64,000 nucleotides of DNA from contig NC_090382.1 of the NCBI RefSeq assembly GCF_036365525.1, positions 80,491,223 through 80,555,222 of the forward strand, given 5' to 3'. Below, in pieces: positions 19,760-56,720 of this stretch. The stretch comes from Heterodontus francisci (lineage: Eukaryota). Position 1 is the stretch's first letter. The number at the start of each line of letters is the position of its first letter. A program made the translations under genes and the position numbers. The notes below the pieces were generated by a model, which was not told the DNA's origin, made no database searches, and saw nothing but the letters and a program-made list of their open reading frames with translations.

Positions 19760-20132
19760 CTTTGCGCTGGGTTATGATGGTGATCAGAGGGATGGTGGGT
19801 CTGTCGGAAAACACCTCCGCGTTGTGCTGAAGCGCATCTTTGACCGTTTGGAAGCCATTGAGCACGACCAGGAGCCGGCTGCCCAGGTACAAGCTGCAAA
19901 TGTCGCCATACGCCTTGCCCAGGGCGGTGAGCTGCAGATGCGGCGGGAGCTGGGCCCCGGAGCCCGGCCTCCAGGCCAAGGTGGGCAGCGAACCGATCAG
20001 GGGCCAGCAGGGCGGGCCGGCGGGGATCCGGCCCCGGCTTTTTCGGTTCATGAAGTAGCGGGTCAGGAAGAGAGCAGCGAGCATTATCAGGGTGACCACT
20101 AGGCAGTCACCGGCCTCCCCAGCCGCCTCCAT
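19760..20132 (-). CDS. CYP2U1: Cytochrome P450 2U1-like, coding exon 1
   Basis: ATG at 20132. N-terminal membrane anchor, basic stretch, proline-rich hinge (IPAGPPCWPLIG) and VFSDRP motif. Ends AAAG|GTTAG, phase 1, 373 nt. GC/CpG-rich. Confidence 0.9.
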
Positions 20133-20156
20133 GTCGCCGACGCCTGGCTCCGCTCG

Positions 20157-20187
20157 TGACGTCAGCGCAGGCCGAGGTCAAAGTGCA
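20157..20187. promoter_or_regulatory. CYP2U1 proximal CRE and DR1 nuclear-receptor element at the edge of a CpG island
   Basis: Perfect TGACGTCA at 20157-20164 and AGGTCA-A-AGTGCA at 20175-20187, 25-55 bp upstream of the ATG. Confidence 0.5.
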
Positions 20188-20333
20188 AAGATGCCTTTCC
20201 TCCATCAGGAGACACTGGGGTTATCCCCACAGTATCAACAAACAACAACTAAGTGGGCACAATTGACGAAGAACTAATTTACAAAAAGTAAACCTACCAA
20301 AGTAAAATAACTTGGACTATATGTGGAGTAAAT

Positions 20334-21268
20334 TAAAGCAAAATACTGCAGATGCTGGAAATCTGAAATAAAAACAAGAAATGCTGGAACCACTCAGCAG
20401 GTCTGGCAGCATCTGTGGAAAGAGAAGCAGAGTTAACGTTTCGAGTCAGTGACCCTTCTTCTTCTGAACTGACAAATATTAGAAATGTCAAAGGTTATAA
20501 ACAAGTGAGGTGGGGGTGGGGCAAGAGATAACAAAGGAGGTCGAGATTGGACCAGGCCACATAGCTGACCAAAAGGTCACGGAGCAAAGGCAAACAATAT
20601 GTTAATGGTGTGTTGAAAGACAAAACATTAGCACAGATTAGGTGTTAATACAGTGAATATTGAACAGCAGCAAGTGCAAACCTGAAAAAAAGAGGGTAAG
20701 CAAACTGAACAAACTAAGATGAAATGAAATAAATGCAAAAAAAAGATTGTAAAAAAGAATGTAAAAAAAAAGGAAGAAAAAATAACTAAAAATGAAAGTA
20801 AAATGGGGGGCTGTCATGCTCTGAAATTATTGAACTCAATGTTCAGTCCGGCAGGCTGTGGTGTGCCTAATCGGTAGATGAGATGCTGTTCCTCGAGCTT
20901 GCGTTGATGTTCACTGGAACACTGCAGCAATCCCAGGACAGAGATGTGAGCAAGAGAGCAGGGGTGGGGGAGTGTTGAAATGGCAAGCAACCGGAAGCTC
21001 AGGGTCCTGCTTGCAGACTGAGTGGAGATGTTCTGCAAAGCGGTCACCCAGTCTGCGCTTGGTCTCCCTAATGTAAAGGAGACCACACTGTGAGCAGCGA
21101 ATACAGTATACTACATTGAAAGAAGTACAAGTAAATCGCTGCTTCACCTGAAAGGAGTGTTTGGGGCCTGGGATAGTGAGGAGAGAGGAGGTAAATGGGC
21201 AGGTATTACACCTGCGATTGCAGGGAAAGGTGCCATGGGACGGGGACGAGGTGGTGGGGGTAATGGAG
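20334..21268 (-). mobile_element. Penelope family A 3' fragment just upstream of CYP2U1
   Basis: Closely similar to 60736-61690. GIY-YIG region VYCIRCSQCGLLYIRETKRRL. Confidence 0.9.
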
Positions 21269-22204
21269 TCCTGGTTGCCACACACCAGCAGAGCCTCCTT
21301 ACATTCGAGAGGGCACAGTGAGGAAAGATTGGAGAAACATGAACTCTGCAGCCTAGTGATGTGCATATGATGTATTAAAGTATGCGAAGCTTGAATATCA
21401 CTTTAAGGTTTGTCAGGCTAGTAGAACGAGAGAACAGAAATTTAAATTAGTGTAAAGTAAACTTGAAACAGAACTGGAGAAAAAAATGTTTATTCAAAAA
21501 GGACGAATCTTTGGAATTATCTACTAATGGAATCAAAGACATTAAATTGGTTCAAGATGCATTTAAGCACTAAGCATCATGAGATGCTAGAAAAATCAAA
21601 CAACAGTTTATAATATCAAACCTTATATCTTGAACTCAAATCTGACCAGTTGTTATCCTTTATATAATTGCCTGGATTCTCCTTGCTGAATTCTCCATTT
21701 TTCTGGTGTTATAAAGGCAGTCTTGCAAATAAAATGGACAGAGAGACCTTCCACTGAAACTACTCTCTAAAATTGGCCAGCTCGACTTCCTTCCCATGAT
21801 CCCACTATAGCCATGATCTGCCTGTCTCAATGCATGCAATGAAGATGGGGAGAACATAGCTTAGTTATCCACAGAATTTCCACAATATACCTTGGTGGCC
21901 ACTGACTAAACAGTACATGAAAAAAAATCATAATAGTAGCACAACACTCCGATGGCAATGTGACCATTAAAGGTTCACAGAATAAAAGAAAAAAATAGGT
22001 TTTGGAACTATTAATATTTTCCTTTGATCTGTTTAATGTGCAAGTGTATCTCATTGGGCTATAAGCAATGATTTGTTGGAGATGGTTGTCATCTGGCCTT
22101 TAGGTAGTATGAATATACCCTGCCACTTGTGAGCCCAAGTCTGGACCGTATTCAGATCCTGCTGTAGGTTGCCATGGGGTGTTCCATAATCAGAAGAGTT
22201 GTGA

Positions 22205-22525
22205 ATTTCTCTTTATTTGTTCATGGGATGTGGGTGTCACTAGCTTGGCTAGCATTTATTGCCCATCCTTAATTGCCCTTGAACTGAGTGGCTTGCTAGA
22301 CTATTTCAGAGGGCAGTTTAGAGTCAACCACACATGTAGGCCAGACCAGGTGAGGATGGCAGATTTCCCTCCCTAAAGGACATTAGTGAGCCAGATGAAT
22401 TTTTGCAACAATAAAATTCCAGATTTATTAATTCAAATCTCACCATCTGTCATGGTCTCCAGAGTACTAGTCTGGGCTACTGGATTACTAGGCTAGTGAC
22501 ATCACCACTATGCCACTGCTTCCCC
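22205..22525 (-). mobile_element. SINE-like element made of the 5' head and 3' tail of the 24110-27326 LINE
   Basis: Head homologous to 24110-24432, joined directly to a tail homologous to 27251-27326. Confidence 0.8.
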
Positions 22526-22599
22526 AGAATGGAACTAGATGTCACAGAATTGTCAAAAAAACACAGCCCCATTCCTGACCATGTGACAAAGGGAGGGTC

Positions 22600-22890: not shown

Positions 22891-24109
22891 GAAATGTTTA
22901 CAGTAAGTTACTAGAAGTACAAAAAGTGACTAACCTATTCAGTGGATTTTCCAAAAATACAAGTAATTAAGGAATAGGTTTTGTATATTCAGATCGATAC
23001 AATCAAATATGTGATTACTTTGACAGACATTCTGTATCATTAGAGTGAATGGGGAAAGGTCCATTTACAATTGAATTTTGTTTTTATTGTTGTTCTGAAA
23101 TTAACTGTAGCACTGTTAGGCCAAAGTTCCAAGTAACTGGAACAGTTAATATATCAGATAGTTTTCTCTTTTTTGACAAAGTTATGGAAGAGAACATCTT
23201 TATATGTATAAATAAATAATCAGGTCTTGGAATAGTAAACATTTGTTTTCTGGTTAATCCTGTCCTTGTTGCAACCAAATGATTTTTCTTTTAAACTCTT
23301 TGATGTGTAGCCTTGGCAGTGAATTGCGACTATTGTGTGAAGTGGAAAAATGTCTGAAAGTAGGGACGGTATTTTGAATATATATAATTTTCTCCCTTTG
23401 CATGTTGTGATTATTGCATGTTTTGGCTTTAAATTTCTATTCATAGTAGAGGGAGGAGGAAATTGATGGGTGCAGTCCCAGCACTGATCTAGTCTAGTCC
23501 ATGATGTCGTATGACTCACATTCTTGTCTCAGCAGGAGAAAGGCCACATGTATGATTGTAGACTATATCCTGTATGTTTCCTTCATAAAAAACAGAAGAT
23601 TTGAAACCATCACACCTAGGATAAATGATTAGGTGGGTAAGCTGTTCTAAGAACCTGTTTATTTTGAAAATGAGGAACTCTATTCACATCTATAAAATTA
23701 TTCATAACCTGATTGGCTGCTGACTGTTCAAAACAAAAATGTTCTTACTTAAATTCCAATTAATACCAGCAAATTAGCTCAATTTAAGGCCCCACTTAGG
23801 GGCCATTTTCAGATGCCGACAGCATTTCCCCAGCCATCAGTGCCTCCTCTCACTGGCCCAATGAATGAACTGCAAGTGTGAAAAGGTCACAGGTGCAGCC
23901 AAAACAATTCTTGTGGAGGGATTTCCCCTCCACACTTATGGCCATAACAAATGTGGGCCTTCTTTAATTTTTAATTTTCAACAGGTTTTTGAGAGTGCCT
24001 TCATTCTCATCTTTCTGCCTCAGCAGAGCCCACATCTCCTGGTGGGGCTGCCAACCGTCCAGGGCTGTGGGCCTTTTAATTGGGCCTCCCCGCAAGGAAC
24101 CCACCAGGC

Positions 24110-27100
24110 GGGGAGGTGGTGGCGTAGTGGTATTATCACTGGACTAGTAACCCAGAGACCCGGGGTATTGATCTGGAGACATGGGTTTGAATCCCACCAC
24201 ATCAGAAGGTGGAATTGGAATTTATAATTAATACATCTGGAATTAAAAGCTAGTCTAATGATGGCCATGAAACCATTGTCGATTGTTGTAAAAACCCATC
24301 TGGTTCACTGACGTCCTTTAGGGAAGGAAATCTGCTGTCCCTACCTGGTCTGGCCTACATGTGACTCCAGACCCACAGCAATGTGGTGAACTCTTACATG
24401 CCCTCTGAAATGGCCTAGTAAGCCACTCAGTTGTGCCTAACTGCTACGAAGTCAATAAAAAGGAATGAAACCGGACAGACCACCCAGTATCGACCAAGGC
24501 ACCGGAAACGACAATGGCAAACCCAGCCCTGTCGACCCTGCAAAGTCCTCCTTACTAACATCTGGGGCTTGTGCCAAAGTTGGGAGAGCTGTCCCACAGA
24601 CGAGTCAAGCAACAGCCTGATTCTGTGAGTATGACTGTCGCAGACACTGCAATCGTTATCCCTGGATGTGACCTGTCCCACCGGCAGGACAGACCCAGCA
24701 GAGGTGGCGGGATAGTGGTGTACAGTAGGGAGGGAGTTGCCCTGGGAGTCCTCAACATCAACTCCGGAATCCATGAAGTCTCATGGCATCAGGTCAAACA
24801 TGGGCAAGGTAACCTCCTACTGATTACCACCTACCGCCCTCCCTCAGCTGATGAGTCAGTACTCCTCCATGTTGGACATCACTTGGAGAAAGCACTGAGG
24901 GTGGCAAGGGCACAAAATGTACTCTGGGTGGGGGACTTCAATGTCCATCACCAAGAGTGGCTTGGCAGCACCACTACTGACCGAGCACTAAAAGGGACAT
25001 ATCTGCTAGACTGGGTCTGCAGCAGGTGGTGGGGGAACCAATACGAGGGAAAAACATACTTGACCTTGTCCTCACCAATCTGCCTGCCGCAGATGCTTCT
25101 GTCCATGACTGTATTGGTGGGAGTGACCACCGCACAGTCCTTGTGGAAACGAAGTCCCGCCTTCACATTGAGGATACTGTCCATCGTGTTGTGTGGCACT
25201 ATCACCGTGCTAAATGGGATAGATTTCAAACAGATCTAGCAATGCAAAACTGGGCATCCATGAGGCACTGTGGGCCATCAGCAGCAGCAGAATTGTACTC
25301 AACCACAATCTGTAACCTCATGGCCCGACATATCCCCCACTCTACTATTACCATCAAGCCAGGAGACCAACCCTGGTTCAATGAAGAGTGCAGGAGGGCA
25401 TGCCAGGAGCAGCACCAGGCACCTCAAAATGAGGTGTCAACTTGGTGAAGCTACAACCCAGGACTATATACTTGTATGCCAAACTGCATAAGCAGCATGC
25501 AATAGAGAGAGCTAAGCGATCCCATAACCAACGGATCAGATCTAAGCTCTGCAGTCCTGCCACATCCAGTCGTGAATGGTGGTGGACAATTAAACAACTA
25601 ACTGGAGGAGGTAGCTCCACAAATATCCCCATCCTCAATGATGAGGGAGCCCAGCACGTCAGTACGAAAGATAAGGCAGAAGCATTTGCAACAATCTTCA
25701 GCCAGAAGTGCTGAGTTGAAGATCCAGACTTCAGCCAATTCAATTCACTCCGCGTGATATCAAGGAACGACTGAAGGCACTGGATACTGCAAAGGCTATG
25801 GGCCCTGACAATATTCCGGCAATAGTACTGATGACCTGTGCTCCAGAACCTGCCACATGCCTAGCCAAGCTGTTCCAGTATAACTACAACACTGGCATCT
25901 ACCTGGCAATGTGGAAAATTGCCCAGGTATGTCCTGTACACAAAAATCAGGACAAGTCCAACCCGGCCAATTACTGCCCCATCAGTCTACTCGCAATCAT
26001 CAGTAAAGTGATGGAAGGTGTCATCAACAGTGCCATCAAGCGGCACTTGCTTAGCAATAATCTGCTCAGTGATGCTCAGTTTGGGTTCTGCCAGGGCCAC
26101 TCAGCTCCTGACCTCATTACAGCCTTGGTTCAAACTTGGACAAAAGAGCTGAACACAAGAGGTGAGGCGAGAGTGACTGCCCTTGACATCAAGGCAGTAT
26201 TTGACAGAGTATGGCATCAAGGAGCCCTAGCAAAACTGGAGTTATTGGAAATCAGGGGGAAAACTCTCTGCTGGTTGGAGTCATACCTAGCACAAAGGTA
26301 TGTGGTTGTTGGAGGTCAATCATCTGAGCTCCAGGACATCACTGCAGGAGTTCCTCAGGGTAGTGTCCTCGGCCCAACCATCTTCAGCTGCTTCATCAAT
26401 GACCTTCCTTCAATCATAAGGTCTGAAGTGGGGATGTTTGCTAATGATTGCACAATGTTCCGCACCATTTGCGACTCCTCAAATACTGAAGTAGTCCGTG
26501 TAGAAATGCAGCAAGACCTGAACAATATCCAGGCTTGGGCTGATAAGTGGCAAGTAACATTTGCGCCACACAAGTGCCAGGCAATGACTATCTCCAACAA
26601 GAGAGAATCTAACCATCTCCCCTTGACATTCAACGGTATTACCATTGCTGAATCCTCCACTATCAACATCCTAGGGGCTACCATTGAGCAGAAACTGAAC
26701 TGCAGTAGCCATATAAATACCGTGACTACAAGAGCCGGTCAGAGGCTAGGAATCCTACGTAGAGTAACTCACCTCCTGACTTCCCAAAGCCTGTCCACCA
26801 TCTACAAGGCACAAATCAGGAGTGTGATGGAATACTCTCCACTTGCCTGGATGGGTGCAGCTCCAACAACACTCAGGAAGTTTGACACCATCCAAGACAA
26901 AGCAGACCGCTTGATTGGCACACCATGCACAAACATTCACTCCCTCCACTACCGATGCACAGTGGCAGCAGTGTGTACCATCTACAAGATGCACTGCAGC
27001 AATGCACCAAGGCTCCTTAGACAGCACCTTCCAAACCCGTGACCTCTACCACCTCGAAGGACAAGAGCAGCAGATGCATTTGAACACCACCACCTGCAAG

Positions 27101-27326
27101 TTCCCCTCCAAGTCACACACCATCCTGATTTGAAACTATATCGCCACTCATTCACTGTCGTCAAAATCCTGGAACTCCCAAACAGCACTTGGGTGTACCT
27201 ACCTCACATGGACTGCAGCGGTTCAAGAAGGCAGCTCACCACCACCTTCTCAAGGGCAATTAGAGATGGGCAATAAATACTGGCATAGCCAGTGACATCC
27301 ACATCTCATGAATGAATAAAAAAAAA
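24110..27326 (+). mobile_element. Near full-length CR1-group LINE (APE + RT, frameshifted) with tRNA-like 5' head and no apparent ORF1
   Basis: A box 24120-24130 and B box 24184-24194. APE motifs (LLTNIWGL, GDFNVHH, GSDH) and RT motifs (GVPQGSVLGP, FAND in place of FADD). A-rich tail. Confidence 0.9.
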
Positions 27327-27769
27327 CTCCCACTGTTCTTAATTGGACAGCGAACGTGGAGGCAGCCAATTAGAGCCTACCTCACGTAAAGTTACACCGA
27401 TGCGTGCCTTGATGACAAGCCCAAGCTCGAGACCCACATATGGTTCCGACATCGGGTTCCCAACGCCTGCAGGAAAATTCAGCCCAATATGTGCAAGTTG
27501 GAAACTGGATACAGCTGAACTTAATTTAAACAGTTGCACTTTGATGAACTTTGGTAGAGGTGTTATGTTTTGTTTTTATGATGGCAATTAATCTCGAAAC
27601 AACCATTTGACAGCTCATGTTGTGATTGACTATGAATGATCTGTCAAGCTTGCATAAAAGTAAGAAAACAGTATGAATAGACAAACGAGGTTTGTAATGA
27701 CTTACTTTATAAGCATGTTTGTGCGCTTGACCTTGCAATATACTCTATTCTTAAAACAGTATCACAATT

Positions 27770-30099: not shown

Positions 30100-30870
30100 A
30101 GTCTCTGAGCAGCCAGCTGGTAACTCTACTTCAAGGTGCAAGGAAATCAGGTAGGGTGGACTGCTGCAGGATGAAAGCATCATGGAGCTGCCCAGCAATC
30201 TTGCACCCACGAGCATAATTTATTTTGGTTACACACCAGCTGCACATTGATGAAGTGGAAGCCCTTGCAGTTGATCAATACTCCTGGGTGATCGAGGGTT
30301 GCATTATTTGCCACCTGCCTGCAGCTGATGGCGTCCTGCACATTTGGGAAGCCCACACAAGCTGAAAACCCAAGCGTCTGCTCATTCTGACTGGCATCAT
30401 CACAGGCAAAGTTCACACAATTGCTGGCCCTGGTAAACAAGCTAGCATTGAGCTGTCCTATGCATTTGCAACCCCCGACTGTGAGATCCTGCCAATGGCT
30501 TCAGAAAATCCCTGTAAGAATCCAGAAGCAAAAGGGAGGTGGTTACTTTGACAGCTAAAGCGTGGCCGCCAGGTCCAGTTGGCAGCAGGTCTTGTTCCAG
30601 CAGGCTGAAAATGTCTGCCACCACCTGACGTGACACCCTGAGCCGCCTTAGACTCTGGTGTTCCAACATGTTGAGGAAGCTTATTCTCTGCCTGTTGACC
30701 CTGTGTGTCGGGTATGGCTTCCTACAAGCTGCACCTCTCAGCTGATCCCTTCTCTGCTGTGTAGGTGCAGGTCTGTGAACAGCCAGTTACTGCTGCTGCT
30801 CCTGCTGCTGGTCAATTTAGCCCTCATCTGTGATCCAAACTAACATAGCATAAGCAGCACCCATGCTAAT
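30100..30870 (-). mobile_element. Decayed PIF/Harbinger transposase (HARBI1-like)
   Basis: LRRLRVSRQ...LLPTGPGGHALAVKVT, GFPNVQDAISC and INCKGFHFINVQLVC. Confidence 0.75.
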
Positions 30871-31399
30871 TTTGATAGATCAGACCTCCAAAGTGTAAAT
30901 GACGGCTCCAAAGAGTGTAAAGTAGCTTCCAAAGCGAGTAAAGTAACCTCTCAGCACAAGTACTATGTACAAATCCTTTCACTAGCATATAAGAAGGTAG
31001 TTGCGAGTACTCAGAACTTATTGTCATTCTTCCCTGCCAAGTCTTCAGCTCCCTCAACTGTCACAGTTTTCTTGCCTTGCTTTCACTGGTGAGTTCCAGG
31101 AAGCCCAAGAAACCCATAGACCCAAAATTAAAGTAGAAATCCCATGTTAATATCACTCTAATTGTGGGATTAGCATATGTCAATTGACAACCTGCTTCTC
31201 CCTAGGTGGTTGAGTGCATGCAGTCTGCATGAGTGAAATGCAGAAGTTGGCACGATGGTGCTGGTTTTCTCATGTGCTTTCATTTTCTCAATTTAACACT
31301 CCATTCATGCACTCTTCCAGTTTAAAATTCCCCCCAGGGTCTTATAACTGTCACATAATATAATTAAGAGCATTATACTCTAGTAATGGAGGTTATGCA

Positions 31400-32200
31400 A
31401 AGCAGGACAAGGAAGAGGGAGGGAGGAGGCAGGAGGCCATATCTGGCCAGGTTGTTCAGAGAGTAGTTCTCTTACCTGAACTTCAGTGAGGAACAATATG
31501 TGAGACATATGCACTTCAGTTAGGACCTCCACACTGAAATCTGCCAACTACTGCAGCTGCAACTGCAACCTCAGAGCAGGGCAAGATTTGCACTATGAAA
31601 ATGATCATGGCAATGGACTTTGCATTTGGCTCCTTCCAGGCTGGAGCTGGATATTTGCAACATCTCGGAGTTTGCCATCCACTGTTTTGAAAGGGTCTCT
31701 ACTGAGGCTCTCTACTCATTAAGGGCTAACTGCATTTCACTCTCTTGCTGGAGAGAAACAGGCAGAGCGAACACGTGGCTCCGCCAGAATTGCAAGCTTC
31801 CCCATGGTGCCGAGCGCCATTGACTGCATGCACATCACTTTTCAGGTGCCACTTTTCAACTCTGCCCTATACTGGATTCCTCTCCCTCAACTTCCAGCTG
31901 GTGTGTGACCATAAGCAGAGAATCATGGAAGTCAATGCCTGGTATCCTGGTAGCAGTCATAATGCCTCCATTGTGCAGCAGTACGCTGGGGCAGCTGCAT
32001 TTGAGCGACCATGAAAGTGTGGCTACTGAGTGGCAAGGGCATTCCACTGATAACTCCAGTGGGAAACCATGCACATGTACGCAGTGTGCATACAATGAAT
32101 GTCATGCTATCACATGAATTGTGATACATTCCCCCTATCTGGACTGCTGTGGAGGAGCCCTGCAGTACTCAGCAGAGTGGGTGTCAAGATTTACGGTGAG
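31400..32200 (+). mobile_element. Second decayed PIF/Harbinger transposase
   Basis: GFLSLNFQLVCDHKQRIMEVNAWYPGSSHNASI, the DDE_Tnp_4-type PGSxHD region. Confidence 0.75.
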
Positions 32201-32204
32201 TTTT

Positions 32205-34835: not shown

Positions 34836-35494
34836 TTATCAAACTATCACGAAGTTTGCTCTCACACACTTTTTAATAAACAAATAGGTGATGATCCTTA
34901 TGGCCATATGCTCACTGTACGTACATGCATAATACATCTTAGTTTACCTGTTGACACTTCACCCACCAGTGGATATCAGCTTTAATACATGCTGAATGTA
35001 GGCAGAGTAGTTACCAAGCAGCTGGAAGGCGTAAAGGTACAATTAACAAACAAAAAGCAAGCCTTATAGGCAAAAAGAATGTATAATAAAGCATAGCAAG
35101 ATATTTGTACCCAATTCCAAATAAAACATGGACCAAACCAACTCTGGGACAATTGCCAAGTGCTGCCTGTTGTTTTAATGGCTGTGCCGTACTAAGACCG
35201 CCATCAAGTGGCAATGATATGTTAGTGACTAATTTTAAAATAGGTTTATAGTTGCTGAAAATGAGCCTAGCTATTTCCTACCTTTCCAAGTCATTCATAT
35301 TCCCATGGGGGAGCTCCATGCTTACGCTTTCAAGCTAAAAGCAACAAAACAGGTGCAAGATGCCCTGCAGCCCCAGCAGAATGTCTGAAGTGGAAGCAAA
35401 TGAAAACCAATTCACACAAAATCATTTTGCTGTCACACTGCAGTGTGCATCTTTAAGGGAAGTCTGAAATGTTGGCCACCCATCTTCAACAGAC

Positions 35495-36989: not shown

Positions 36990-39900
36990 GGCATGAATGA
37001 AAAGGTAAATGATCTAGATCTAATTGCCATTACTGAGACATAGTTAGAAGGAGATCAAGGTTGAGAAATAAATATTCCAGGATACACAATGTTTTGGACA
37101 GACAGACAGAATAGCAAAGGAGGAGGGGTAGTCCTGATAGTAAAGGATGGTATAAGGACATTAATAAGAAGGGATCTGGTCTCAGAAGATCATGAAGTAG
37201 AATCAGTTTGGGTCGAAATTAGGAATAGCAGGAGTCATAAAACACTGGTGGGAGTAATTTACAGGCCCCCTAACAGTAGTTGTATTATTGGACAGAACAT
37301 TAAATGGGAATTTATTGGAGCATGAAAAAAAGGTAATGTATTAATTGTGGGGGACTTCAATCCGCATATAGACTGGGACAATCAAATTGGCAACAGTGAT
37401 CTAGAAGATGAATTTGTAGAATGCTTTTGTGACAGTTTCTTGGAGCAATACGTTGTAGAACCGACTAGGGATAAAGCTATCTTAGATCTCTTATTGTGTA
37501 ATGAAGCAGGGTTAATAAGCAATGTCATAGTAAAAGATCCACTGGGAAATAATGATTATAATACCATTGAATTTCATGTTAAGTTTGAAAGTGACACATT
37601 TCAATCACAAACAAGAATCTTAAACTTAAAGCCAATTACGAAGGTATGAGGGGAGAACTGGCTAAGGTTAAGAACAAAGAACAAAGAACAAAGATAATTA
37701 CAGCACAGGAACAGGCCCTTCGGCCCTCCAAGCCTGCGCCGATCCAGATCCTCTCTCTAAACATGTCGCCTATTTTCTAAGGTTCTGTATCTCTTTTCTT
37801 CCTGCCCATTCATGTATCTGTCTAGATACATCTTAAAAGACTCCATCGTGCCCGCGTCTACCACCTCCGCTGGCAACGCGTTCCAGGTGCCCACCACCCT
37901 CTGCGTAAAGAACTTTCCACGCATATCCCCCCTAAACATTTCCCCTTTCACTTTGAACTCGTGTCCTCTAGTAATTGAAACCCCCACTCTGGGAAAAAGC
38001 CTCTTGCTGTCCACCCTGTCTATACCTCTCATGATTTTGTACACATTGTAATTGGGTTAATTGGGTAAATAGACTGGAAGGTATGGTGGTAAATGAACAG
38101 TGGGAAACATTTAAAGAAACAATTCAAAGGGTTCAACAAAAGTACATTCCGTTCAAAAACAAACATTCATCCAGAAAGACCTATCCGTGGATTACTCAGG
38201 AAGTTAAGGAGATTAGACTGAAAGAAGCTTACAATGTTGCAAAAAAATACTAGCAAGTCTGAGGATTGGAAGTGTTTAAGAAACCAGAAAAGGGCCACCA
38301 AAAAGTTGATAAAAAAGGAAAAAATTGAATTTGAGAATAAACTAGCCAGCAATCTCAAAACAGATTGTAAGAGCTTTTTTTTTAAGTACATAAGAAAAAA
38401 GAGAGTGGCTAAAGTAAATGTTGGTCCTTTAGAGGCAGAAACAGGAGAAATCATCATGGGGAATGAGGAAATGGCAGAGGCATTGAACAAATAGTTTGTG
38501 TTTGTCTTCACAGTAGAAGACACAAGTTCCATATCAGAATGGGCAGTAACCTAGGGGCTAAAAAGAATGAGGAAATTAAGGATATTGATATCAGTCAAGA
38601 AAAAGTATTGGAGAAGCTTGAGGGACTAAAATCTGACAAGTCCCCCGGACCAGATGGCCTACATCCTGGGCTTCTAAAAGAGATAGCTGCAGAGATAATG
38701 GATGTGCTGGCTATGATTTTCCAGAATTCCTCAGATTCAGGAATGGTCCCATCAGATTGGAAGTTGGCAAATGTGACATCACTTTTCAAGAAAGGAGGCA
38801 GAGAGAAAACAGGGAACTCCAGGCCAGTTAGCCTAACATCAGTCATTGGGAAGATGCTGGAAACTATTAAGAAAGTCTTAACATTGCACTTGGAAAAGCA
38901 CGGTATTAAAACAAGTCAACATGGTTTTACTGAAGGGAGATCCTGTTTGACAAATTCATTAGAGGTTTTGAGGATGCAACTAGTAGGGTAGATAAAGGGG
39001 AACCAGTAGATGTAGTATACCTGGATTTTCAAAAGGAATTCGATAAGGTGCCACATAAAAGATTAATAGGCAATGGCTCATGGTGTTGGGGTAATATATT
39101 AGCATGGATAGAGGATAGGTTAACAGACAGGAAACAGAGAGTGAGCATAAAGGGGGCATTTTCAAGTTGGCAGGCAGTGAATAGTGGGGTGCCGCAAGGA
39201 TCAGTGCTGGGGCCTTAGCTATTTACACTCTATATTAAAGAATTGGATGAAGAGACAGAGAGTAATGTATCGAAGTTTGCTGGTGATACAAAGCTCAGCG
39301 AAAAGGTAAGCTGCGAGGAGGATGTAGAGAGGCTGCAAAGAGATATCGACAGGTTAAGTGAGTGGGCAATAAGATGGCAAATGGAGTATAATGGAGGGAA
39401 GTGTGAAGTTGTTCACTTTGGTCATAAAAATAGAAAATAATGTTTTTTTTAAAAAAAGGTGTGAAACTGGTAAGTGTTGATGTTCAGAGAGACTTGGGGA
39501 TACTCGGGGATAACAAAGTTAACATGCAGGTGCAGCAGGCTATTAGGAAGGCAAATGGCATTTTGGTCTTTACTGCAAGGGGATTGGAGTACAGGAATAA
39601 AGAAGTCTTATTAAAATTGTACAGGGCTTTGGTGAGACTGCACCTGGAATATTGTATGCAGTTTTGGTCTCCACATTGAAGAAAGAATATACTTGCACTG
39701 GAGGCAGTGCAACGAAGATTTACTAAATTGGTCCGTGGGATGAGGGGGTTGTCCTATGACGAGAGGCTGAGTAAATTGGGCCTATATTCTCCGGAGGTTA
39801 GAAGAATGAGAGGTGATCTAACTGAAACATACAAGATTCTTAAAGGGCTTGATAGGGTAGAAGCTGAGAGATTGTTCCCACTGGTTGGGGAATCTAGAAC

Positions 39901-40200
39901 ACGGGGACACAGTCTCAGGATAAGGGGTCAATCATTCAGGACCGAGATGAGGAGAAATTACTTCACTTAAAGGATTGTGAATCTATGGACTGCTCTACCC
40001 CGGAGAGTTGTGCCTACTCCATTATTGAATAAATTTAAGGCTGGGATAGATAGATTTTACCTCCCGCAGGGAATCAAGGGATATAGGGAGCAGGCAGGAA
40101 AGTGGAATTGAAGCCCAAGATCAGCTATGATCGCATTGAATGGCAGAGCAGGCTCGATGGGCCATATGGCCTACTTCTGCTCCTATTTCTTGTGTTCTTA
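36990..40200 (+). mobile_element. CR1 LINE ORF2 (APE + RT), decayed, with a nested CR1 3' end
   Basis: GVIYRPPNS, GDFNPHIDW, KSPGPDGLHP, SQHGFTEGRSCLTN, KFAGDTKL and tail ctatttcttgtgttctt. Confidence 0.9.
37670..38045 (-). mobile_element. Younger CR1 3' end nested in the CR1
   Basis: YKIMRGIDRVDSKRLFPRVG...FFTQRVVGTWNALP and an (AAGAACA)n tail on the plus strand. Confidence 0.85.
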
Positions 40201-40729
40201 AAGTTAATTTTACAAATTGCTTTTTCAGTGGGAATTGTTTATTTTATTAATTGATAACTCAGTGGTGGGGGAGGAGATTGGAAGTGTTGCTGACATTTTG
40301 TTTGTTACATCTGGGCACAGGCACCTTTGAAAATTTTAATGAATCTGAAGGGTTTGATGCCCTTTAAAAATGGCACCAGCTCCTGCACGATGGCACAGGA
40401 CGCCACTGTGGGGATGCAGCAGCTGCCTCCTCTACGTCATCTTGGGCAACCACTCTGACCCCTCCATTTAAATGAGCCCCCACACAAAATATCGCGGGGG
40501 CTCAGCGGCGGTGCTTCCGTGTCTTATTTGAAACAATTTTTGTTTAGAAAAAAAAAAATCAATTTTAGCATGAATTTATTACAGGAGATCTATCTGAGCA
40601 ATGAGTCAATGAGTTTATCCAATAAGGCTAGATGGTCCTAGGTTACATTCCTGTTCTGTTTTGAGTTTTCTGATCTTAGCCTGAGTGTCAGTAAGGGCTT
40701 CATAATTGGCCTTAATGCCCTTTGGGTTA

Positions 40730-41640
40730 AGGGGACCCGAGGATTGGAGGTCTGTGAGCATTGTACCATTGTTTAAAAAGGGTGCGAAGGATAGGCCAAA
40801 TAATTATAGGCTGGTCAGTCTGACTTCAGTAGTGGGTAAATTATTAGAATCAATTCTGAGAGATTGGATAAACTGCCACCTAGAAAGGCACAGATTAATC
40901 AGGGATAGTCAGCATGGATTTGTTTAGGGAAGGTCGTGTCTTACTAACAATTAAATTTTTTGAGGAAGTAACAAGGAGGATTGATGAGGGTAATGCAGTG
41001 GATGTGGTCTACATGGATCTTAGTCAGGCATTTGACAAGGTTAGAAAAATAAAAGCCCATGGGATACAGGGGAATGTGGCAGGTTGGGTCCAAAATTGGC
41101 TCAGTGACAGGAAACAAAGGGTAGTGGTCAACGAATGTCTTTGCAAATGGAAAGTGGTTTCCAGTGGCGTTCCACAGGGCTCAGTGTTGAGTCCCTTGCT
41201 GTTTGTGATATATATCAATGATTTGGACTTAAATGTGGGAGGCTTGATTGGGAAATTTGCAAATGACACAAGAATTGGCCGTATAGTTGATAGTGAAGAG
41301 GATAGCCATAGACTCCAGGATGATATTGGTTTGGATCTGCTTCCCCTAGCAGAGACGTCAATTACCAGGGGGCACAGATTTAAGGTGATTGAAGGATTAG
41401 AAGGGACATGAAGAAAAGCTTTTTCACTCAGAGGGTGGTGGTTGTCTGGATCAATGGTGGAGGTAGAAACCCTCAATTCATTTAAAAGTTACCTGGACAT
41501 GCAGCAGAAGTGCTGCAACCAGCAAGGCTATACACCAGGTGCTGGAAGGTGGTATTAGATTGGGCGGCTGGTTTTTTTTCAGCTGTCACTGAATGGCCTC
41601 CTTCAGTGCTGTCACTTTTCTATGGTTCTTCTATGATTCG
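40730..41640 (+). mobile_element. CR1 RT fragment with internal deletion
   Basis: PEDWRSVSIVPLFKKG, GVPQGSVLSPLLF and KFANDT. Confidence 0.85.
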
Positions 41641-44369: not shown

Positions 44370-44714
44370 GGGTGGCACAGTGGTTAACACCGCAGCCTCA
44401 CAGCTCCAGCGACCCGGGTTCAATTCTGGGTACTGCCTGTGTGGAGTTTGCAAGTTCTCCCTGTGTCTGCGTGGGTTTTCTCCGGGTGCTCCGGTTTCCT
44501 CCCACAAGCCAAAAGACTTGCAGGTTGGCAGGTAAATTGGCCATTATAAATTGCCACTAGTATAGGTAGGTGGTAGGGAAATATAGGGACAGGTGGGGAT
44601 GTGGCAAGAATATGGGATTAGTGTAGGATTAGTATAAATGGGTGGTTGATGGTCGGCACAGACTCGGTGGGCCAAAGGGCCTGTTTCAGTGCTGTATCTC
44701 TAAACACTAAACAC
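44370..44714 (+). mobile_element. HE1/V-SINE-type SINE
   Basis: Same family as the other copies, with a short AATG duplication. Confidence 0.85.
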
Positions 44715-47129
44715 AATGATGACATTAGGTAGAAGGGACAGGATGTTAAGGAGAGGAAAATTTTCATGCTGCATATCAATGCATTTTTACTGGAAGGTGG
44801 TTTCCAATCACACTACTTTATTCTTTTACTGGGGATAATAAACAGTGAGCCTCGAATCACAGAGAAGATCATGAGAAGGGCCTGGATTAATTAATCTTCT
44901 GATTTTCCCTCCATAACTATGGGCAAGTGCCTAGCATCCATTCAGTATGAACAGGAGGACAAAGGTTCAATTGATATTATAAACTATGATAGTAAAAATT
45001 TAAGCAGTTTCCAAATGTTATCAAGACCCTGAAATAAAATAACAGCCTTGAAATCAATCCGATCTGTTCCTTTTCATTGCACATGTATACATTGCCCTGA
45101 AATTGCAGCATGAGATTTCTCTGCTATTTTAGTGAAGGTATTTTCCATTCATTTTAAATGGGTTAATACCATCTCTAAAATAGTGGAGAGGAATTTCAGA
45201 ATAGTTTTCTAAGCATTTATACATTAATATCACACAACATAATTTCAGGTCATACATATGTTTTGTTGGGGCCAATTTTATTTTGTTTGGATCTGGTGGA
45301 ATAATTGTAAATATTTCTCAACATTTTATTGGACTCAAGTTGTCCCATCACAAAATGATAAAATCAACTTTGATGTGAAGAGATTTTCAGATCAAAAAAG
45401 CCATGAATTGCGGTTTATGAATGAGTAAAGGCGAAAGTCAGAAACCCACAAAACAGACTTTATTCATTCATTCCAAAAATATGGAGAACAATTTTCATCA
45501 GCATATCACCCTATTTTACAGCATGAACAGCACAAAGGCAGATTAAATTATTAAAACGCCTCACACACCTTTACCTCCTGATGTCTGTTTTACTTGATTT
45601 TCAAGCAGGCCTTTAAGTAGATGACCATCACGCCACCTCCAACACCCCCCAAAACAGCCACCCGAGTCTTGACATATTTAAATCAGGACCCCGTGCTGTT
45701 GTTAGGACCCCAATACAATTTTGGTCTTCCACTGGGCAGGGTGTGGCTGAAGTAGCAGTCCTTGAAGGAGCAGCAAGCTGCTCAAAAATGTTCCTAAACA
45801 TATTTTTCCAATATATTTTTGCAGAGCCAGAAGGCACCACTGAATATTCTGTTCTCCCTCCCTGATCGGTGAGCTGTGCCAGTGCTCGTTCTGAGCTGGC
45901 AGCTCACTGATATTATCCAAATGAGACGCAACCACCATACAGTTGGACCCATGGAGTTTTGCTCCTGTGATTAGTGTAAATACTAACTATTGAGCTTGAT
46001 GAACCAAACAATTTCAGTCAGGATCTAGCAGTCAAAGGGGCAGGACTGTGGCAGAGACTTGTCCAAACTTTTTTTGTTCAGATACACTCCATAAAACATA
46101 ATTCATGTTAAACTGCATCATGCCACTTGTATGATGTTCTTATAAGAAAACTGGTAAATGGTTCTTCTGTCTCGTCAAATAAACAAAAGTATGTTGAACA
46201 TTTCGGTCATGAAAGCATTATCTCCTCGATTCATGTGCTGGAAAGAATTCAACTACACTGAACTAATCATAAAAAAAGTTTTATAGACTTATATCTGAGG
46301 GTCAACCACTGGATAGCCCAGAATCCCCAAAAAACTACAACTGTTGATCTTTGAAATGCAAAAAGTCTAGCTGGTTTGGTCAATATACAGAAGGGATTTA
46401 TCCGGTAAAAGGAAGATTTATCTCAATGGAAGGATCTTGCTCATTTACAATTGTTTGCATCAGACTTGTTAAAAGAAAAATAATGAAACCTGTAAAAACA
46501 CCTCCCGTCTTCTACCATTCAAACTGGAACTTGCTGCTCTTATCTGATAAGATGGTGTGGATATTTTCCTGCTGGCCGAGGTCTGTTCTTCGTGACTGAT
46601 ATCTGGATTTGGCTGAACTAGAGAACAAGCTGTTTTGCATTCATCCAATTTCTTGATTTTAATGCATTCAGAGATATCTTAAAATTAAAAAGCATATCTT
46701 AAATAGTATTTTTTTTAATGAATTGTTTAGTAGGCCATCACAAAGCATTTACTTTTTTAATTTAACTTTTTTAATTAGTATTTCAGGAAAGGCTGACAGA
46801 GAATATTTTTTTAAGGTTAAAATCAATTACTGGCTGTTTCTTTTGGAAATTTGCATGTTATACTTGACTCTTTTTCTTCACTGTTTTCCTGAAGGTGGAG
46901 ACTCTTGCTGGAGATCAGCTAACTCATCAAAAGATCATTTCTGTCCTAGTCTATGTGGCTCAACTACCTACTGGATATATTCACTGAATGATTGTAGCCA
47001 GCTTTTTTAAAAAGCAAACATTTGTACTCAATGAAATGAAGGATATTAGTGCTACAAAGTGAAACATTTTCCTATTTAAAGTAGCCAGTGTCAAAAGCAA
47101 GTATTCCTGGGTCAGGTCATAGCTCAGGT

Positions 47130-48919: not shown

Positions 48920-48947
48920 TACATCTCAATTTTCAACAATACTCAAA

Positions 48948-50423: not shown

Positions 50424-51704
50424 GTCTTCTTTGGCCTCCTTATCTCGAGAGACAATGGGTAAGCGCCCGGAGGTGGTCAGTGGTGTGTGGAGCAGCGCCT
50501 GGAGTGGCTATAAAGGCCAATTCTAGAGTGACAGGCTCTTCCACAGGTGCTGCAGAAAGATTTGTTTGTCAGGGCTGTTACACAGTTGGCTCTCCCCTTG
50601 CGCTTTTGTCTTTTTTCCTGCCAACTGCTAAGTCTCTTCGACTCGCCACACTTTAGCCCCGACTTTGTGGCTGCCCGCCAGCTCTGGTGAACGCTGGCAA
50701 CTGACTCCCACGACTTGTGATCAATGTCACAGGACTTCATGTCGAGTTTGCAGACGTCTTTAAAGCGGAGACATGGATGGCCGGTGGGTCTGATACCAGT
50801 GGCGAGCTCGCTGTACAACGTGTCTTTGGGGATCCTGCCATCTTCCATGCGGCTCACATGGCCAAGCCATCTCAAGCGCTGCTGACTCAGTAGTGTGTAT
50901 AAGCTGGGGATGTTGGCCGCCTCGATGACTTCTGTGTTGGAGATACGGTCCTGCCACCTGATGCCAAGCATTCTCCGGAGGCAGCGAAGATGGAATGAAT
51001 TGAGACGTCGCTCTTGGCTGACATACGTTGTCCAGGCCTCACTGCCATAGAGCAAGGTACTGAGGCCACAGGCTTGATACACTTGGACTTTTGTGTTCCG
51101 TGTCAGTGCGCCATTTTCCCACACTCTCTTGGCCAGTCTGGACATAGCAGTGGAAGCCTTTCCCATGCACTTGTTGATTTCTGCATCTAGAGACAGGTTA
51201 CTGGTGATAGTTGAGCCTAGGTAGGTGAATTCTTGAACCACTTCCAGATCGTGGTCGCCACTATTGATGGATGGAGCATTTCTGACGTCCTGTCCCACGA
51301 TGTTAGTTTTCTTGAGGCTGATGGTTAGGACAAATTTGTTGCAGGCAGCTGCAAACCTGTCGATGAGACTCTGCAGACACTCTTCAGTGTGAGATGTTGA
51401 AGCAGCATCGTCAGCAAAGAGGAGTTCCCTGATGAGGACTTTCCGTACTTTGGACTTCGCTCTTAGACGGGCAAGGTTGAATAACCTGCCCCCTGATCTT
51501 ATGTGGAGGAAAATTCCTTCTTCTGAAGACTTGAACGCATGTGAGAGCAGCAGGGAGAAAAAAATCCCAAAAAGTGTGGGTGCGAGAACACAGCCCTGTT
51601 TCACGCCACTCAGGATAGGAAAGGGGTCTGATGAGGTGCCGCTATGTTGAATTGTGCCTTTCATATTGTCATGGAGTGAGATGATGATACTTAGTAGCTT
51701 AGTA
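50424..51704 (-). mobile_element. 5'-truncated RTE/BovB-like LINE with an open RT C-terminal half
   Basis: GVKQGCVLAPTLF, LFADD and C-terminal CSTC..H motif. 9-bp TSD GGATGAAAC at 50415-50423 and 51705-51713. Confidence 0.9.
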
Positions 51705-52440
51705 GGATGAAACACACATAGCATAATAAATTTCTTGCAATGAATTACAAAACAGTAATTAAATCACAAGACATTGATGACTGCAATCTGCATGCGTGAT
51801 AAACAACATTATGAATGGGAAGTGGCAACAGTCACTCAGGAGACATTGTCTCTTATGATGTCGCTGTAGGGATTCTTTTTACAACAGTCATCTGTTCTCC
51901 AGTGATGAGAGCATTTTAATTGCAGATTGGTACAGGCATGGCATTTCCAGTGTGATAACATACAGAAATGAAGCAAAGACTTTCCTCAACTCAAGATAAA
52001 AATGGCGCAGAAGATTCTGTCCTTCCTCTTCTCAACAGGAAAAAAATTAACATACTTTTTTCATATAGACTCAGGAGCTGAAATTCCTTGGATGGAGGAG
52101 TGTGCAAGTCAAATGATTGGCTGTGGGGGAGATGGAATATGAATTTTGGATGGAAACTGGATCTAACAAGTTTGTGCCCAATTTGTGGGGCATCAAATTC
52201 CAATCAAGAAGGATGAGCAAGTCTTCTGCCTCACTACACACCTCCCACTGCCAACATTCACATTAAACTTTGAGTTATGAATGAGGACATTCTCAGGTTA
52301 CTCCAGAAATACTACTCAGCAAACCCTCCTTCGGTCCAGCAGAAGCCAAACCTGTCAACAGTACGTGTGGCTTCTGTATTTGGCCCTTTGAAGGCCCCAA
52401 ACATCATAAGGAGCAAAGGTAATTGATTCCAGAAGACCTG

Positions 52441-52733: not shown

Positions 52734-52744
52734 CTGTAGAGAGG

Positions 52745-53716: not shown

Positions 53717-56294
53717 GAAGTAAAATATTTTCAACTTTAAACTTTGGCCCATTAAGGGCCCTGGCTTTCCCCAATGTGGCAGGTGGCAAGCTGCTTTCCT
53801 GGCATTTTTTCAGATCAAGCACTTCTGTTGTACTTCTTTAGTTGTGGCCTGCCTGCCCCAATTATTAAAATAACACTTTTTCCAGGACTTGGGACAAATT
53901 CAACATCCTGAGCAGTTGGCAGCTGAAAGTCCTCCCCCTCCCCACACTTCTGATGGCAGAGAAGGCACCCAGAAATGTCAGGTCTCTAGCTTGTTACCTT
54001 ATTTAATTTCCTCTTGGTTGGTCTCACAAGCACATTATGCTCTCCAACTAAAGGGAGGGAGGGTCGAGCAGCACACTCCGAGACCTCTGCTTAGTCAAAC
54101 TAAACCCCAAGGACTTATACACTTCTAACCTTGCAAACTGCACCTCACCCCAAGGCCCAAAGCCCCCACTAATTTGTTCAGTAACTCACTGTGCAGCCAT
54201 GAATGTGTATTCTAATAAACATCAATGTGCTGTACTAGAGATCCAATATACAGTACCACATTCTGATTGCTATTTTGGGGTTTATAATTATTTTCAAGGT
54301 TAACACTATTCATTATTTATAGTTAGAGAGAGATGATGAACAGTGGTAATAAGGCAGTGACTATTAGTTTCTTGAAATCCAGGAGTTGAGTGCAGGAAGA
54401 AGTTTAATGTACAAATCAGACTAGTTACGGTAAGCTGCCTGCACTCAATTACCCTTTCTTTCCCTATCTTTATATATGTCACATACCTTCATTCATTACC
54501 CTTCTTAAGCAGACCTTATCTGAGACATCAGCAAGGGAGCAATGTGATCTATGGACTCTGGGGAGCAATACCCTCTAGCTGGTCTGCTGCATTGCTCTGG
54601 CTTTACCCTGCTTGCCTACATCATTTCCTCTTCTCCCTTCTATTCTGCCAACATTGCAAAACCCATGCTAAGATCTCTGTGACAGAAGGAAGAAAAAGAT
54701 TTCTTGAAGCAGAAAAGAGGCTTTCTTCACAGCATAGCTACGAGAAGATTTTTCTAATTGTGCCAGTCATAACTGATATTTTAGACAAAGCTGGTGGACA
54801 CAAAAGACAGGAGCGGGTAAGTTCAGAAAGGCATGCGGAACCCAGAAATCAGGATTCCCCTGCATGTTGTGGCGTTTCGTTGGGGGACATCATTAATTGA
54901 CAGATTTGGCTTTTAGTCAGATGGGGAACTGGCTGGTGGAGACTTTATGAACGTGTTGAGCCACGTCGGGGAGGAGGATTGCAATCTCAGTGGGGGAGGG
55001 AAGGTGAATCAATCATGGGTGGGGGCAATCAAGAGGGAAGGGCATGTCAATGGGGCAACTAATTTGGGGGCGGCTGCCAATCCCATGGTCCAGGGGGGTG
55101 GTTGAAGTCTTGTGGAGGGGGAGAGAATCAAAGGCCTCTGGGGATGGGGATCGGAAGCCTTGAGGAGAGGTCACAGGTCTGACAGGAAAATAGGAGGCCT
55201 TAGGGGGAAGTGGGATGCCTGAGCGTGAAGGGATCGGCGGCCTTGTGGGGAAGGTTGGGGGACACGATGGATCCAGGAGGTAGATATAAGGGCACTCACC
55301 TCCTGGATCTGGCAACCCTTGTCTAGATGTAGCTGCCAGGTTAAATTTGAAAATTTGAATCATATTGAGGCTCACAGCCTCATTATCATATTTAAAGTAC
55401 CAACCTTCTCTTGAAGGGGGTTGGTTAGCCGCTCACCTTCCTGCCTCAGTTAAAGCCAGAAGTAGATGGGTGAAAGCAGGTTTGGATTGGGAATCTGATT
55501 TTTAAGACTTAAATCCCCTCATCTGACCTCAACCCGCCTGCTTTTCTTTTGGTTAAAATTCTCCCCAAAGTCTATGAACTCAACTACTTCCTGGTTTGAC
55601 ACCCAAGCAGCTAACGTACCTTCCTTTCTTCACCTTTACTTAGGTCAGGTGTAAATGGAATTAGTTCTAGTACAATGCTTTTGCCCTCAGTATTCTGTCA
55701 TTTCCATATCTGGTGGCAGGCTCATCTTACCTGCAGCCACTTCTACTGAAATTTAACATGCGTTAACTCAAGCATATCTGACTCGCACTCCAAATTCCAA
55801 TCCACGATACGAGAACTAGACCATTTTTGTCCCAAAAGTATTGGAATTTTGGGATCCAGGTTTCCAGCTTCTTGCAGGAATGATTAGTCACTTGGATGAA
55901 ATACTGGAGCCCTACTGCTATCCCAGAACTATACCCAAGCAGCCACTGCCTTAAGAAAAGGAGGAGAGAAAATTGGATAAGAAAGAAACAATGGGATAAG
56001 TATACTATCAGAAAAAGGATAAGCAAATTTTACAATATAAAAACTATAAATCCATTCCCACTCTCCAAAACATCGACTCTTATACAGGGGGGAAATTGTT
56101 GATCTGGTTTGCCTAGAATTGATTTTTATAATGGAATGAACCAGATTCCACAAGTTAGGATAGTCCACAATACAATTCAAATGCCATTGGAAGAAGCCCC
56201 AGAAACTGATGTCGTAGTGTTAGAGAGAAGCGGCTGTTGCTGTCTGTGATAGGACCTGGGTTAGCAAGTCACCAAGTTGGGAGGTACCACACAC

Positions 56295-56344
56295 TTCAAA
56301 GGGGCGGGAAGAAAAAGGACAGTTATGCCCCAACCCTATTTAAA
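56295..56344 (+). promoter_or_regulatory. Candidate DKK core promoter: TCF/LEF site, GC box, TATA-like box
   Basis: TTCAAAG 56295-56301, GGGGCGGGA 56301-56309 and TATTTAAA 56337-56344, about 180-230 bp upstream of the ATG. Confidence 0.55.
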
Positions 56345-56525
56345 AACTGAAATGGAAATAGGATATGGCAGATTTTAGGAACAGTAACTGACTGCGTAAC
56401 TGAAGTTGAACCGTGCTGCAACTAGATACAGAGGATCATTTCGGTTTATCAACTGGCACCTGTATTTTAAATTGCTTTATTTTAAATCATTTAGATCAAG
56501 ATTAAGAGAACGTAAAATTTTGAAA

Positions 56526-56720
56526 ATGATGCAGGTGAAAGATTGTTGCAAATATATAATATTTTATTTGCTGTTGAGCTCGTGCTGGGTGATGGGGGGA
56601 AATGCTTTAAATAGAAATTCCATCAAAAAGGCAGAAAGTGAAGGAATTCCATCGCTACATGTCAACACCTCGACAGGGATTCAGCAGGGACACAACAGCA
56701 ACAAAGCTGCTGACATCCAG
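56526..56720 (+). CDS. Dickkopf-related protein (DKK1/2/4 class, DKK2-like), coding exon 1 with signal peptide
   Basis: MMQVKDCCKYIIFYLLLSSCWVMGGNALNRNSIKK...NTSTGIQQGHNSNKAADIQ. Hydrophobic signal peptide, DKK-type NSIK motif and an N-x-S sequon. Donor CAG|GTACTT, phase 0, in frame with exon 2. Confidence 0.82.

Follow-up and report, generated by a model that had tools for sequence, protein, structure and literature searches.

The window analysed here is a stretch of 64,000 nucleotides from the shark Heterodontus francisci (assembly GCF_036365525.1, contig NC_090382.1, positions 80,491,223 to 80,555,222); positions given below count from its first letter. The window contains two live genes in head-to-head orientation: a CYP2U-type cytochrome P450 on the minus strand (ATG at 20132) and a gene of the Dickkopf (DKK) family on the plus strand (ATG at 56526), with starts 36,393 bp apart. 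The interval between them holds the decayed remains of a sphingomyelin-synthase (SGMS) gene as well as fragments of mobile elements (Table 1). Both live genes are already annotated, as CYP2U1 and DKK2-like. A sequence-only reading of the same DNA had described a divergent P450 and DKK pair 36 kb apart, and the coordinates bear this out.

Table 1. Features of the window, with positions counted from its first nucleotide (ORF, open reading frame; LINE, long interspersed nuclear element; aa, amino acids)
Feature	Position	Strand	Description
CYP2U-type P450, exon 1	19760..20132	-	373 bp = 124 codons + 1 base; GT donor
P450, exon 2	6654..7289	-	636 bp; I-helix motif; AG/GT ends; 100% to P0125
P450, exon 3	5068..5229	-	162 bp; K-helix ExxR; Pfam p450 E 5.4e-11
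SGMS pseudogene, first coding exon remnant	46289..46592	-	fish SGMS2 aa ~58-163; 2 stops, 2 frameshifts
SGMS pseudogene, internal exon remnant	34868..35021	-	SGMS2 aa ~201-252; exactly 154 bp; 2 stops
SGMS pseudogene, probable last-exon remnant (weaker)	~23488..23654	-	aa ~311-366; 3 stops, 3 frameshifts
Fourth DKK1/2/4-type gene, exon 1	56526..56720	+	65 codons; GT donor; hydrophobic N-terminus; N-x-I motif
Fourth DKK gene, exon 2	60559..60703	+	first cysteine-rich domain; Dickkopf_N E 1.4e-15
LINE remnant (endonuclease + reverse transcriptase)	24562..27339	+	Pfam Exo_endo_phos_2, RVT_1; self-repeat map
Fragmented LINE sequence, between the first and second SGMS remnants	37329..41411	+	Exo_endo_phos_2, RVT_1 on three ORFs
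LINE reverse-transcriptase remnant, between SGMS relic and DKK start	50425..51763	-	Pfam RVT_1 E 5.2e-09

Gene structures and the SGMS relic

The three P450 exons have canonical splice ends and join into one open frame that equals residues 1-390 of P0125, the protein of Heterodontus francisci named CYP2U1 by NCBI, letter for letter; exon 1 alone is identical to amino acids 1-124 and is recognised by Pfam (p450, E 1.7e-09). Residues 391-505 have no match within the window, and the later exons lie beyond its start. The I-helix, ExxR, PxRF and haem-cysteine motifs are all intact in P0125, the last two being encoded outside the window. The third position of the I-helix motif (P0125 aa 313-317) is S, with T in 7/7 other CYP2U proteins examined. 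Exon 1 is CpG-rich (GC 0.62, CpG observed/expected ratio (o/e) 0.72, measured over 19760-20260), and exon 2, among the best 120 of 1025 matches, reaches 82-93% with 12 chondrichthyan proteins and 56-63% with bony-vertebrate CYP2U1.

The sequence-only reading had considered exon 1 to be short, and rightly so: it encodes 124 aa, compared to 163 aa in two mammals. The short exon is a trait of the chondrichthyan group, with 34-38 residues after the proline motif in 7/7 chondrichthyans versus 49-61 in the 9/9 bony vertebrates measured. Across chondrichthyan CYP2U genes the exon varies from 121 to ~170 codons because short tandem repeats precede the membrane anchor; such repeats are seen in the catshark and carpet-shark CYP2U proteins P0124, P0129, P0007, P0131 and P0136. 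A 38-bp minisatellite of ~12 copies (window 19293-19753) starts 6 bp past the donor of exon 1.

Upstream of the P450, and on the same strand, lie three remnants of an SGMS gene in the order of the gene. The remnant at 46592-46289 has a tblastn E of 8e-07 (best E 0.11 in 10 shuffled windows) and 36-42 identities over 96-102 aligned residues in a frameshift-aware alignment with fish SGMS2 (score 154, null maximum 57 in 30 shuffles). The remnant at 35021-34868 is bounded by a pyrimidine tract plus AG and by GT; its tblastn E is 1.6e-05 to 2.3e-04 against the same best E of 0.11 in the 10 shuffled windows, its score 81 against a null maximum of 49 (30 shuffles), and its independent E-value from a hidden Markov model (HMM i-E) 1.1e-07. 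The limits of the relic exons agree with what we take to be the intron positions of SGMS2. The relic resembles SGMS2 in being ~40% identical over three exon-sized pieces in gene order; unlike SGMS2, it carries 7 stops and 5 frameshifts in ~200 codons. On its significant homology, disabled frame and exon-intron structure it classifies as a unitary pseudogene, and the number of stops suggests a long decay. Strand, side, exon order and one exon with both splice signals mark it as a genomic duplicate; a retrocopy is rejected on the splice signals and kilobase spacing. Decay in place is shown here for the genome of Heterodontus francisci. Two further peaks, at 44533 and 28406, were rejected as wrong in order or strand, and the best scores for SGMS exons 2 and 4 were matched by 9-19/40 and 14-38/40 shuffles; the exon with the second catalytic motif was not found. 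We note that the label 'Sgms2-2' in SI Table 5 of PMC10115646 implies a second Sgms2-named model in the skate, which could be one model split in two or a functional counterpart of the gene that has died here.

The sequence-only reading had recognised no PAPSS or SGMS gene between the pair. This holds for intact genes—none of 361 stop-to-stop ORFs (at least 33 unmasked codons) matches either family in Pfam, where both control exons (2/2) are found and the rest are weak chance matches (E at least 0.0037)—and fails for decayed ones, as the three SGMS exons show. The blank in the ORF scan says nothing on decayed genes because the same scan missed the SGMS relic. The HADH part of P0028 gave a best E of 0.58 against the window, with shuffles equally good.

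Exon 1 of the DKK gene matches P0122/P0123 at 62-64%, and exon 2 matches the 'dickkopf-related protein 2-like' of catshark and smooth-hound (2/2 candidates) at 85-88%; later exons lie beyond the window end. The orthologues P0122/P0123 carry PF04706, PF21479 and PF21481, the C-terminal subdomains of DKK1/2/4. With the first cysteine-rich domain (CRD1) read in the window, the remainder taken from these orthologues and the signal peptide judged by eye, the product is assigned to the DKK1/2/4 subfamily of predicted secreted proteins with two cysteine-rich domains. Intron 1 of the gene contains an AT-rich yet CpG-retaining segment (57000-57700, CpG o/e 0.76), possibly a conserved regulatory element; a part of it (57336-57631) is touched by low-depth contigs of all 4 sequencing runs compared with the window.

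Relationships of the Dickkopf and P450 genes

A search with the catshark DKK protein against 1.84 billion representatives gave 197 matches, the best 150 of which are listed. Among the matches listed, the nearest relatives are the 'dkk2-like' proteins of sevengill shark, elephant shark, coelacanth and lungfish. The lungfish possesses dkk2-like, DKK2 and DKK4 as three separate genes, and the elephant shark possesses dkk2-like plus a separate DKK4; the skate tables in PMC10115646 name Dkk1, Dkk2, Dkk3 and Dkk4. In a 35-row tree the window gene and six 'dkk2-like' proteins (four chondrichthyans, coelacanth, lungfish) form one clade (support 100/99), separate from the clades of DKK2 (98/96), DKK4 (100/98) and DKK1 (72/90). 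Rows were picked from the matches for length and spread, leaving out mostly single-domain fragments; unnamed rows are labelled by best-match similarity, and the divergent P0235 and P0257 stand outside the trees. The clade returns (95/96) in a tree of 19 fuller rows, and an approximately unbiased (AU) test rejects a grouping of the shark genes with DKK2 that leaves the coelacanth and lungfish partners outside (p-AU 0.032). The sequence-only reading had compared the pair with human DKK2 and CYP2U1. Identity with DKK2 is rejected by the separate clade, by the AU test and by the lungfish, which keeps both dkk2-like and DKK2. Identity with DKK4 is likewise rejected, as the gene falls outside the DKK4 clade and elephant shark and lungfish keep both genes. 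For DKK4 itself, PMC10967326 reports the order POLB-DKK4-VDAC3 as retained in whale shark. Judged by these phylogenies, the window DKK constitutes a fourth paralogue of the DKK1/2/4 type, separate from DKK1, DKK2 and DKK4. No fourth DKK of a ray-finned fish or tetrapod was recognised among the 150 listed of 197 matches, in which 50% clusters can hide members. The tree also contains a divergent DKK2 subgroup (P0168, P0171, P0172, P0205; 100/98), unnamed and probably a teleost duplicate.

The fourth DKK shares with DKK1, DKK2 and DKK4 the Dickkopf_N domain, the C-terminal subdomains (in full-length orthologues) and the N-x-I motif, and its best match among solved structures is the second cysteine-rich domain (CRD2) of DKK2 (E 3e-30). 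At the same time it is only 45-48% identical to lungfish DKK2, lungfish DKK4 and mammalian-type DKK1. In 4/4 members of the clade examined, the F of the CRD2 motif 'HFW' is changed to L and the F of 'IFQRC' to Y. We take these aromatic positions to be LRP6-contact residues of DKK1, and therefore the affinity or specificity of the fourth DKK may differ. Since the N-x-I motif and both domains are kept, the protein is most likely a secreted LRP5/6 ligand that dampens Wnt signalling. The supplement of a catshark cartilage paper contained DKK3 only.

Cytochromes P450 with more than 55% identity are grouped in one subfamily. Over its full length the shark P450 is 56.3-60.6% identical to the CYP2U1 of gibbon, coelacanth and sturgeon, which share 65-70% among themselves. 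In a 21-row tree, built without CYP2R1 and jawless-vertebrate sequences, chondrichthyan and bony CYP2U form one clade (100/100) versus five other CYP2 rows. Identity above 55% and monophyly with CYP2U1 both assign the gene, on sequence grounds, to the CYP2U subfamily. CYP2R1 was rejected as an identity for the gene, given 56-61% to CYP2U1 and an undivided first exon.

Within CYP2U, the chondrichthyan (100/99) and bony (90/98) groups are sisters on stems of 0.27 and 0.22, the same order as the crown-to-tip lengths of both groups. Such long stems would fit a split older than both crowns, without proving it. The shark gene resembles bony-vertebrate CYP2U1 in its sister position, its identity, its I-helix, ExxR and haem motifs and its long undivided exon 2, and differs in chromosome, in neighbour and in the length of the segment after the proline motif. 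Judged by its skate orthologue, it does not lie where a CYP2U1 orthologue would, between SGMS2 and HADH on the LEF1 chromosome; its neighbours here are a dead SGMS and a DKK other than DKK2.

The chondrichthyan 'CYP2U1' is probably an ohnologue, and not an orthologue, of bony-vertebrate CYP2U1. The sequence-only reading had raised the possibility of a second CYP2U-type gene, which finds no support in that form: the gene may be the only CYP2U of sharks, a different copy from the human one rather than an extra copy. It appears fairly likely that sharks lost the copy kept by bony vertebrates, i.e., that the loss was reciprocal. Passages of PMC3012610 describe bony-vertebrate CYP2U1 as a single-copy gene with zebrafish-human synteny whose product is an omega and omega-1 fatty-acid hydroxylase. 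By analogy, the shark enzyme is most likely a microsomal fatty-acid omega/omega-1 hydroxylase like human CYP2U1.

Chromosomal placement and origin of the block

The pairing is not confined to one genome. In the catshark, XP_038651834 (CYP2U1) and XP_038651835/836 (dkk2-like) are consecutive accessions on contigs of equal size (244,324,502), and the sevengill CYP2U1/dkk2-like pair lies on contigs of equal size (73,985,925); the accessions place P450 and DKK next to each other in the catshark as well. The skate CYP2U1-like protein XP_055499230 lies on a contig of 60,429,722 bp, the very position at which Leri_11C ends in SI Table 8 of PMC10115646. According to the tables of the same source, the Papss1 and Hadh baits lie on Leri_1C (116.81 and 116.96 Mb), Vdac1 on Leri_11C, Tcf7l2 on Leri_15C and Tcf7l1 on Leri_35C, and its SI Table 3 divides linkage group I/Q into 1-alpha (LER15), 1-beta (LER35), 2-alpha (LER1) and 2-beta (LER11, chicken chromosome 13 (GGA13)). 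The skate orthologue of the P450 is thus found on LER11 (2-beta), the sister, by the second vertebrate genome duplication (2R), of the PAPSS1-HADH chromosome LER1 (2-alpha). In two sturgeons, CYP2U1 is located beside SGMS2 (consecutive accessions).

For human 4q25, PMC10967326 gives the order LEF1-HADH-CYP2U1-SGMS2-PAPSS1-DKK2. The window shares with this block the order CYP2U-SGMS-DKK, an SGMS on the P450 strand and a divergent DKK. The human strand directions in this comparison are those we assume for the block genes. It differs from the human block in that SGMS is dead, no PAPSS is seen and the DKK is another paralogue, and in that the skate P450 is on chromosome 11 with PAPSS1 and HADH on chromosome 1.

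Our preferred explanation, with a probability of roughly 0.8, is that the window is the 2R-beta twin of the human LEF1-HADH-CYP2U1-SGMS2-PAPSS1-DKK2 block. Three independent observations support it: the DKK forms a paralogue of its own, the P450 has its skate orthologue on the 2R sister of the PAPSS1-HADH chromosome, and a dead SGMS copy lies upstream of the P450 on the same strand. To these the gene structures and the catshark adjacency add what can be observed directly. The same three grounds support the proposal of the sequence-only reading, which had suggested a paralogous block with a different set of gene losses. SGMS exons in the interval had been named there as evidence against such a block; exons are indeed present, but all are broken, and because they are broken they strengthen the case for a twin block.

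The second duplication would have copied an ancestral DKK-(PAPSS)-SGMS-CYP2U array into two. The alpha copy would have retained DKK2, PAPSS1, SGMS2 and HADH, and CYP2U1 as well among the bony vertebrates. The beta copy would have given rise to the region now on skate chromosome 11 (chicken 13 type), its DKK being retained by cartilaginous fishes, coelacanth and lungfish and its CYP2U by cartilaginous fishes. The SGMS of the beta copy would have decayed in place, split by LINE insertions, and its PAPSS would have been lost or eroded, and the interval would thereby have shrunk to 36 kb. One surviving copy per lineage would have sufficed if the alpha CYP2U disappeared from sharks. As with the 2R origin itself, the functions of DKK and P450 and the reciprocal loss of CYP2U are our interpretation. 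Duplication before the gnathostome radiation is indicated for DKK, both paralogues spanning cartilaginous or lobe-finned lineages; this dating comes from DKK, not from the CYP2U tree or the SGMS relic.

Three other histories were weighed. An old segmental duplication of DKK-SGMS-CYP2U before the split of sharks and bony fishes would account equally well for the separate DKK clade, the SGMS relic and the gene order, and it can also draw on the fact that neither the trees nor the AU test fix the place of the fourth DKK among its paralogues. The copy would, however, have had to land by chance on the one chromosome that 2R predicts; DKK1, DKK4 and DKK2 leave exactly this slot of four free, and PMC9303524 describes the four TCF/LEF genes, which belong to this linkage group (I/Q), as 2R ohnologues. 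We consider such a duplication improbable, and just as improbable a history in which the P450 is the true CYP2U1 orthologue, moved together with a piece of SGMS2 beside the fourth DKK in an early chondrichthyan. A move of this kind agrees with a CYP2U tree that follows the species tree, and with one CYP2U type per chondrichthyan species, mostly named CYP2U1, among the matches listed. Yet it would have had to recreate by chance, next to a DKK paralogue, both the ancestral gene order and the head-to-head arrangement, and it sits poorly with an SGMS relic only ~40% identical to fish SGMS2, with an Sgms2 model still expressed in skate according to PMC10115646, and with the long P450 stems. That a misassembly or a local deletion in one genome put DKK2 beside CYP2U1 is hardly credible: although the sequencing runs gave repeat matches only and are no guide to the continuity of the interval, the catshark adjacency is identical, both sevengill genes are on contigs of one size, DKK2 is rejected as the identity of the DKK, and SGMS remnants are spread in order across the interval.

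Several points weigh against the 2R origin that we prefer. The CYP2U tree, having the shape of the species tree, cannot by itself separate orthologues from ohnologues. A second chondrichthyan CYP2U type, or a species with both copies, is absent among the 120 listed of 1025 matches, a list that is incomplete since teleost CYP2U1 is missing from it as well; the sources name the gene CYP2U1 in 18/22 chondrichthyan species and 2U1-like in 4/22. The fourth DKK is sister to DKK2, as predicted, with only 78/87 in the 19-row tree, and the AU test leaves a sister position to DKK1 (p-AU 0.20) or DKK4 (p-AU 0.24) standing. The chromosome assignment is a size match for the skate orthologue and not for the window's own chromosome, no skate dkk2-like protein was retrieved, and SI Table 3 of PMC10115646 itself queries the LER1 assignment ('LER3?'). 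Within the interval, 2/5 SGMS coding exons were not found and the third remnant is weak (score 53, null maximum 50 in 30 shuffles; HMM i-E 0.073). In a second scoring it reached 63-66, a value that 0/60 shuffles attained with any one of the 3 queries; the range and penalties of that test were set once the candidate was known, and the remnant is accepted mainly because of its strand and order. The relic was compared with fish SGMS2 and may be closer to either SGMS1 or SGMS2. Finally, no PAPSS family was found by Pfam in 42 read-through frames (46.6-50.5 and 51.6-56.6 kb), a search that also missed 2/2 relic-exon controls, so that a PAPSS relic may still be present.

Repeat content and meaning of the locus

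Repeats make up 23% of the interval by self-similarity, and counting matches to transposon proteins encoded in the window raises this to 42%, both being lower bounds; the earlier description of the interval as repeat-dominated therefore holds in part. Its larger ORFs are LINE and transposase remnants. The LINE remnant at 24562 separates the last two SGMS remnants. DDE_Tnp_4 transposase remnants, presumably Harbinger-type, occupy 30180-32014 (Pfam E 0.00073). An apparently intact Penelope-like element with an open 906-aa frame (reverse transcriptase and GIY-YIG domains) lies in DKK intron 2 (61234-63957, minus strand), and older copies of this type are found at ~15.5-17.9 kb and 20.3-21.3 kb. 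Comparison of the 4 sequencing runs with the window gave repeat matches only, uninformative on expression either way, and atlas searches gave family-level matches only.

Differential loss after genome duplication is itself a well-known process. Bmp16 and the Kazald quartet are reportedly cryptic vertebrate ohnologues or cases of hidden paralogy. The present locus resembles such cases in being a 2R copy that survives in sharks and a few bony fishes but that model species lack; it differs in that one short block shows three fates, with one gene kept, one dead and one probably swapped under the wrong name. In PMC13450315, 135 shark-only ohnologues are reported. Neither a fourth DKK1/2/4 gene nor a paralogy of shark CYP2U was found in the open-access literature; subscription journals, P450 nomenclature files and the tables of ohnologs.com were outside this search and may contain such a report. 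The SGMS pseudogene is not mentioned in the literature or annotation examined.

Taken as a whole, a wider picture has about even odds. The first jawed vertebrates would have possessed four DKK1/2/4-type and two CYP2U genes. All cartilaginous fishes would have kept the chromosome-11-type CYP2U and lost the copy that all bony vertebrates kept, so that 'CYP2U1', a textbook case of one-to-one orthology, would be a hidden paralogue in them. The fourth DKK, with its LRP6-facing surface changed, would survive in chondrichthyans, coelacanth and lungfish after two losses, one among the ray-finned fishes and one as tetrapods arose, and a third SGMS ohnologue, a fossil here, may be alive in other cartilaginous fishes.

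The fourth DKK raises the ancestral gene count of a core family of Wnt inhibitors and offers developmental biology a DKK not yet studied, which the fish ancestors of tetrapods possessed. The SGMS relic shows that, in a slowly evolving shark genome, a gene dropped from a duplicated block can remain legible. For CYP2U, the locus points to a probable naming error: the cartilaginous-fish 'CYP2U1' is likely the sister copy, with consequences for P450 nomenclature, for dating and for the use of sharks as an outgroup for the human gene.

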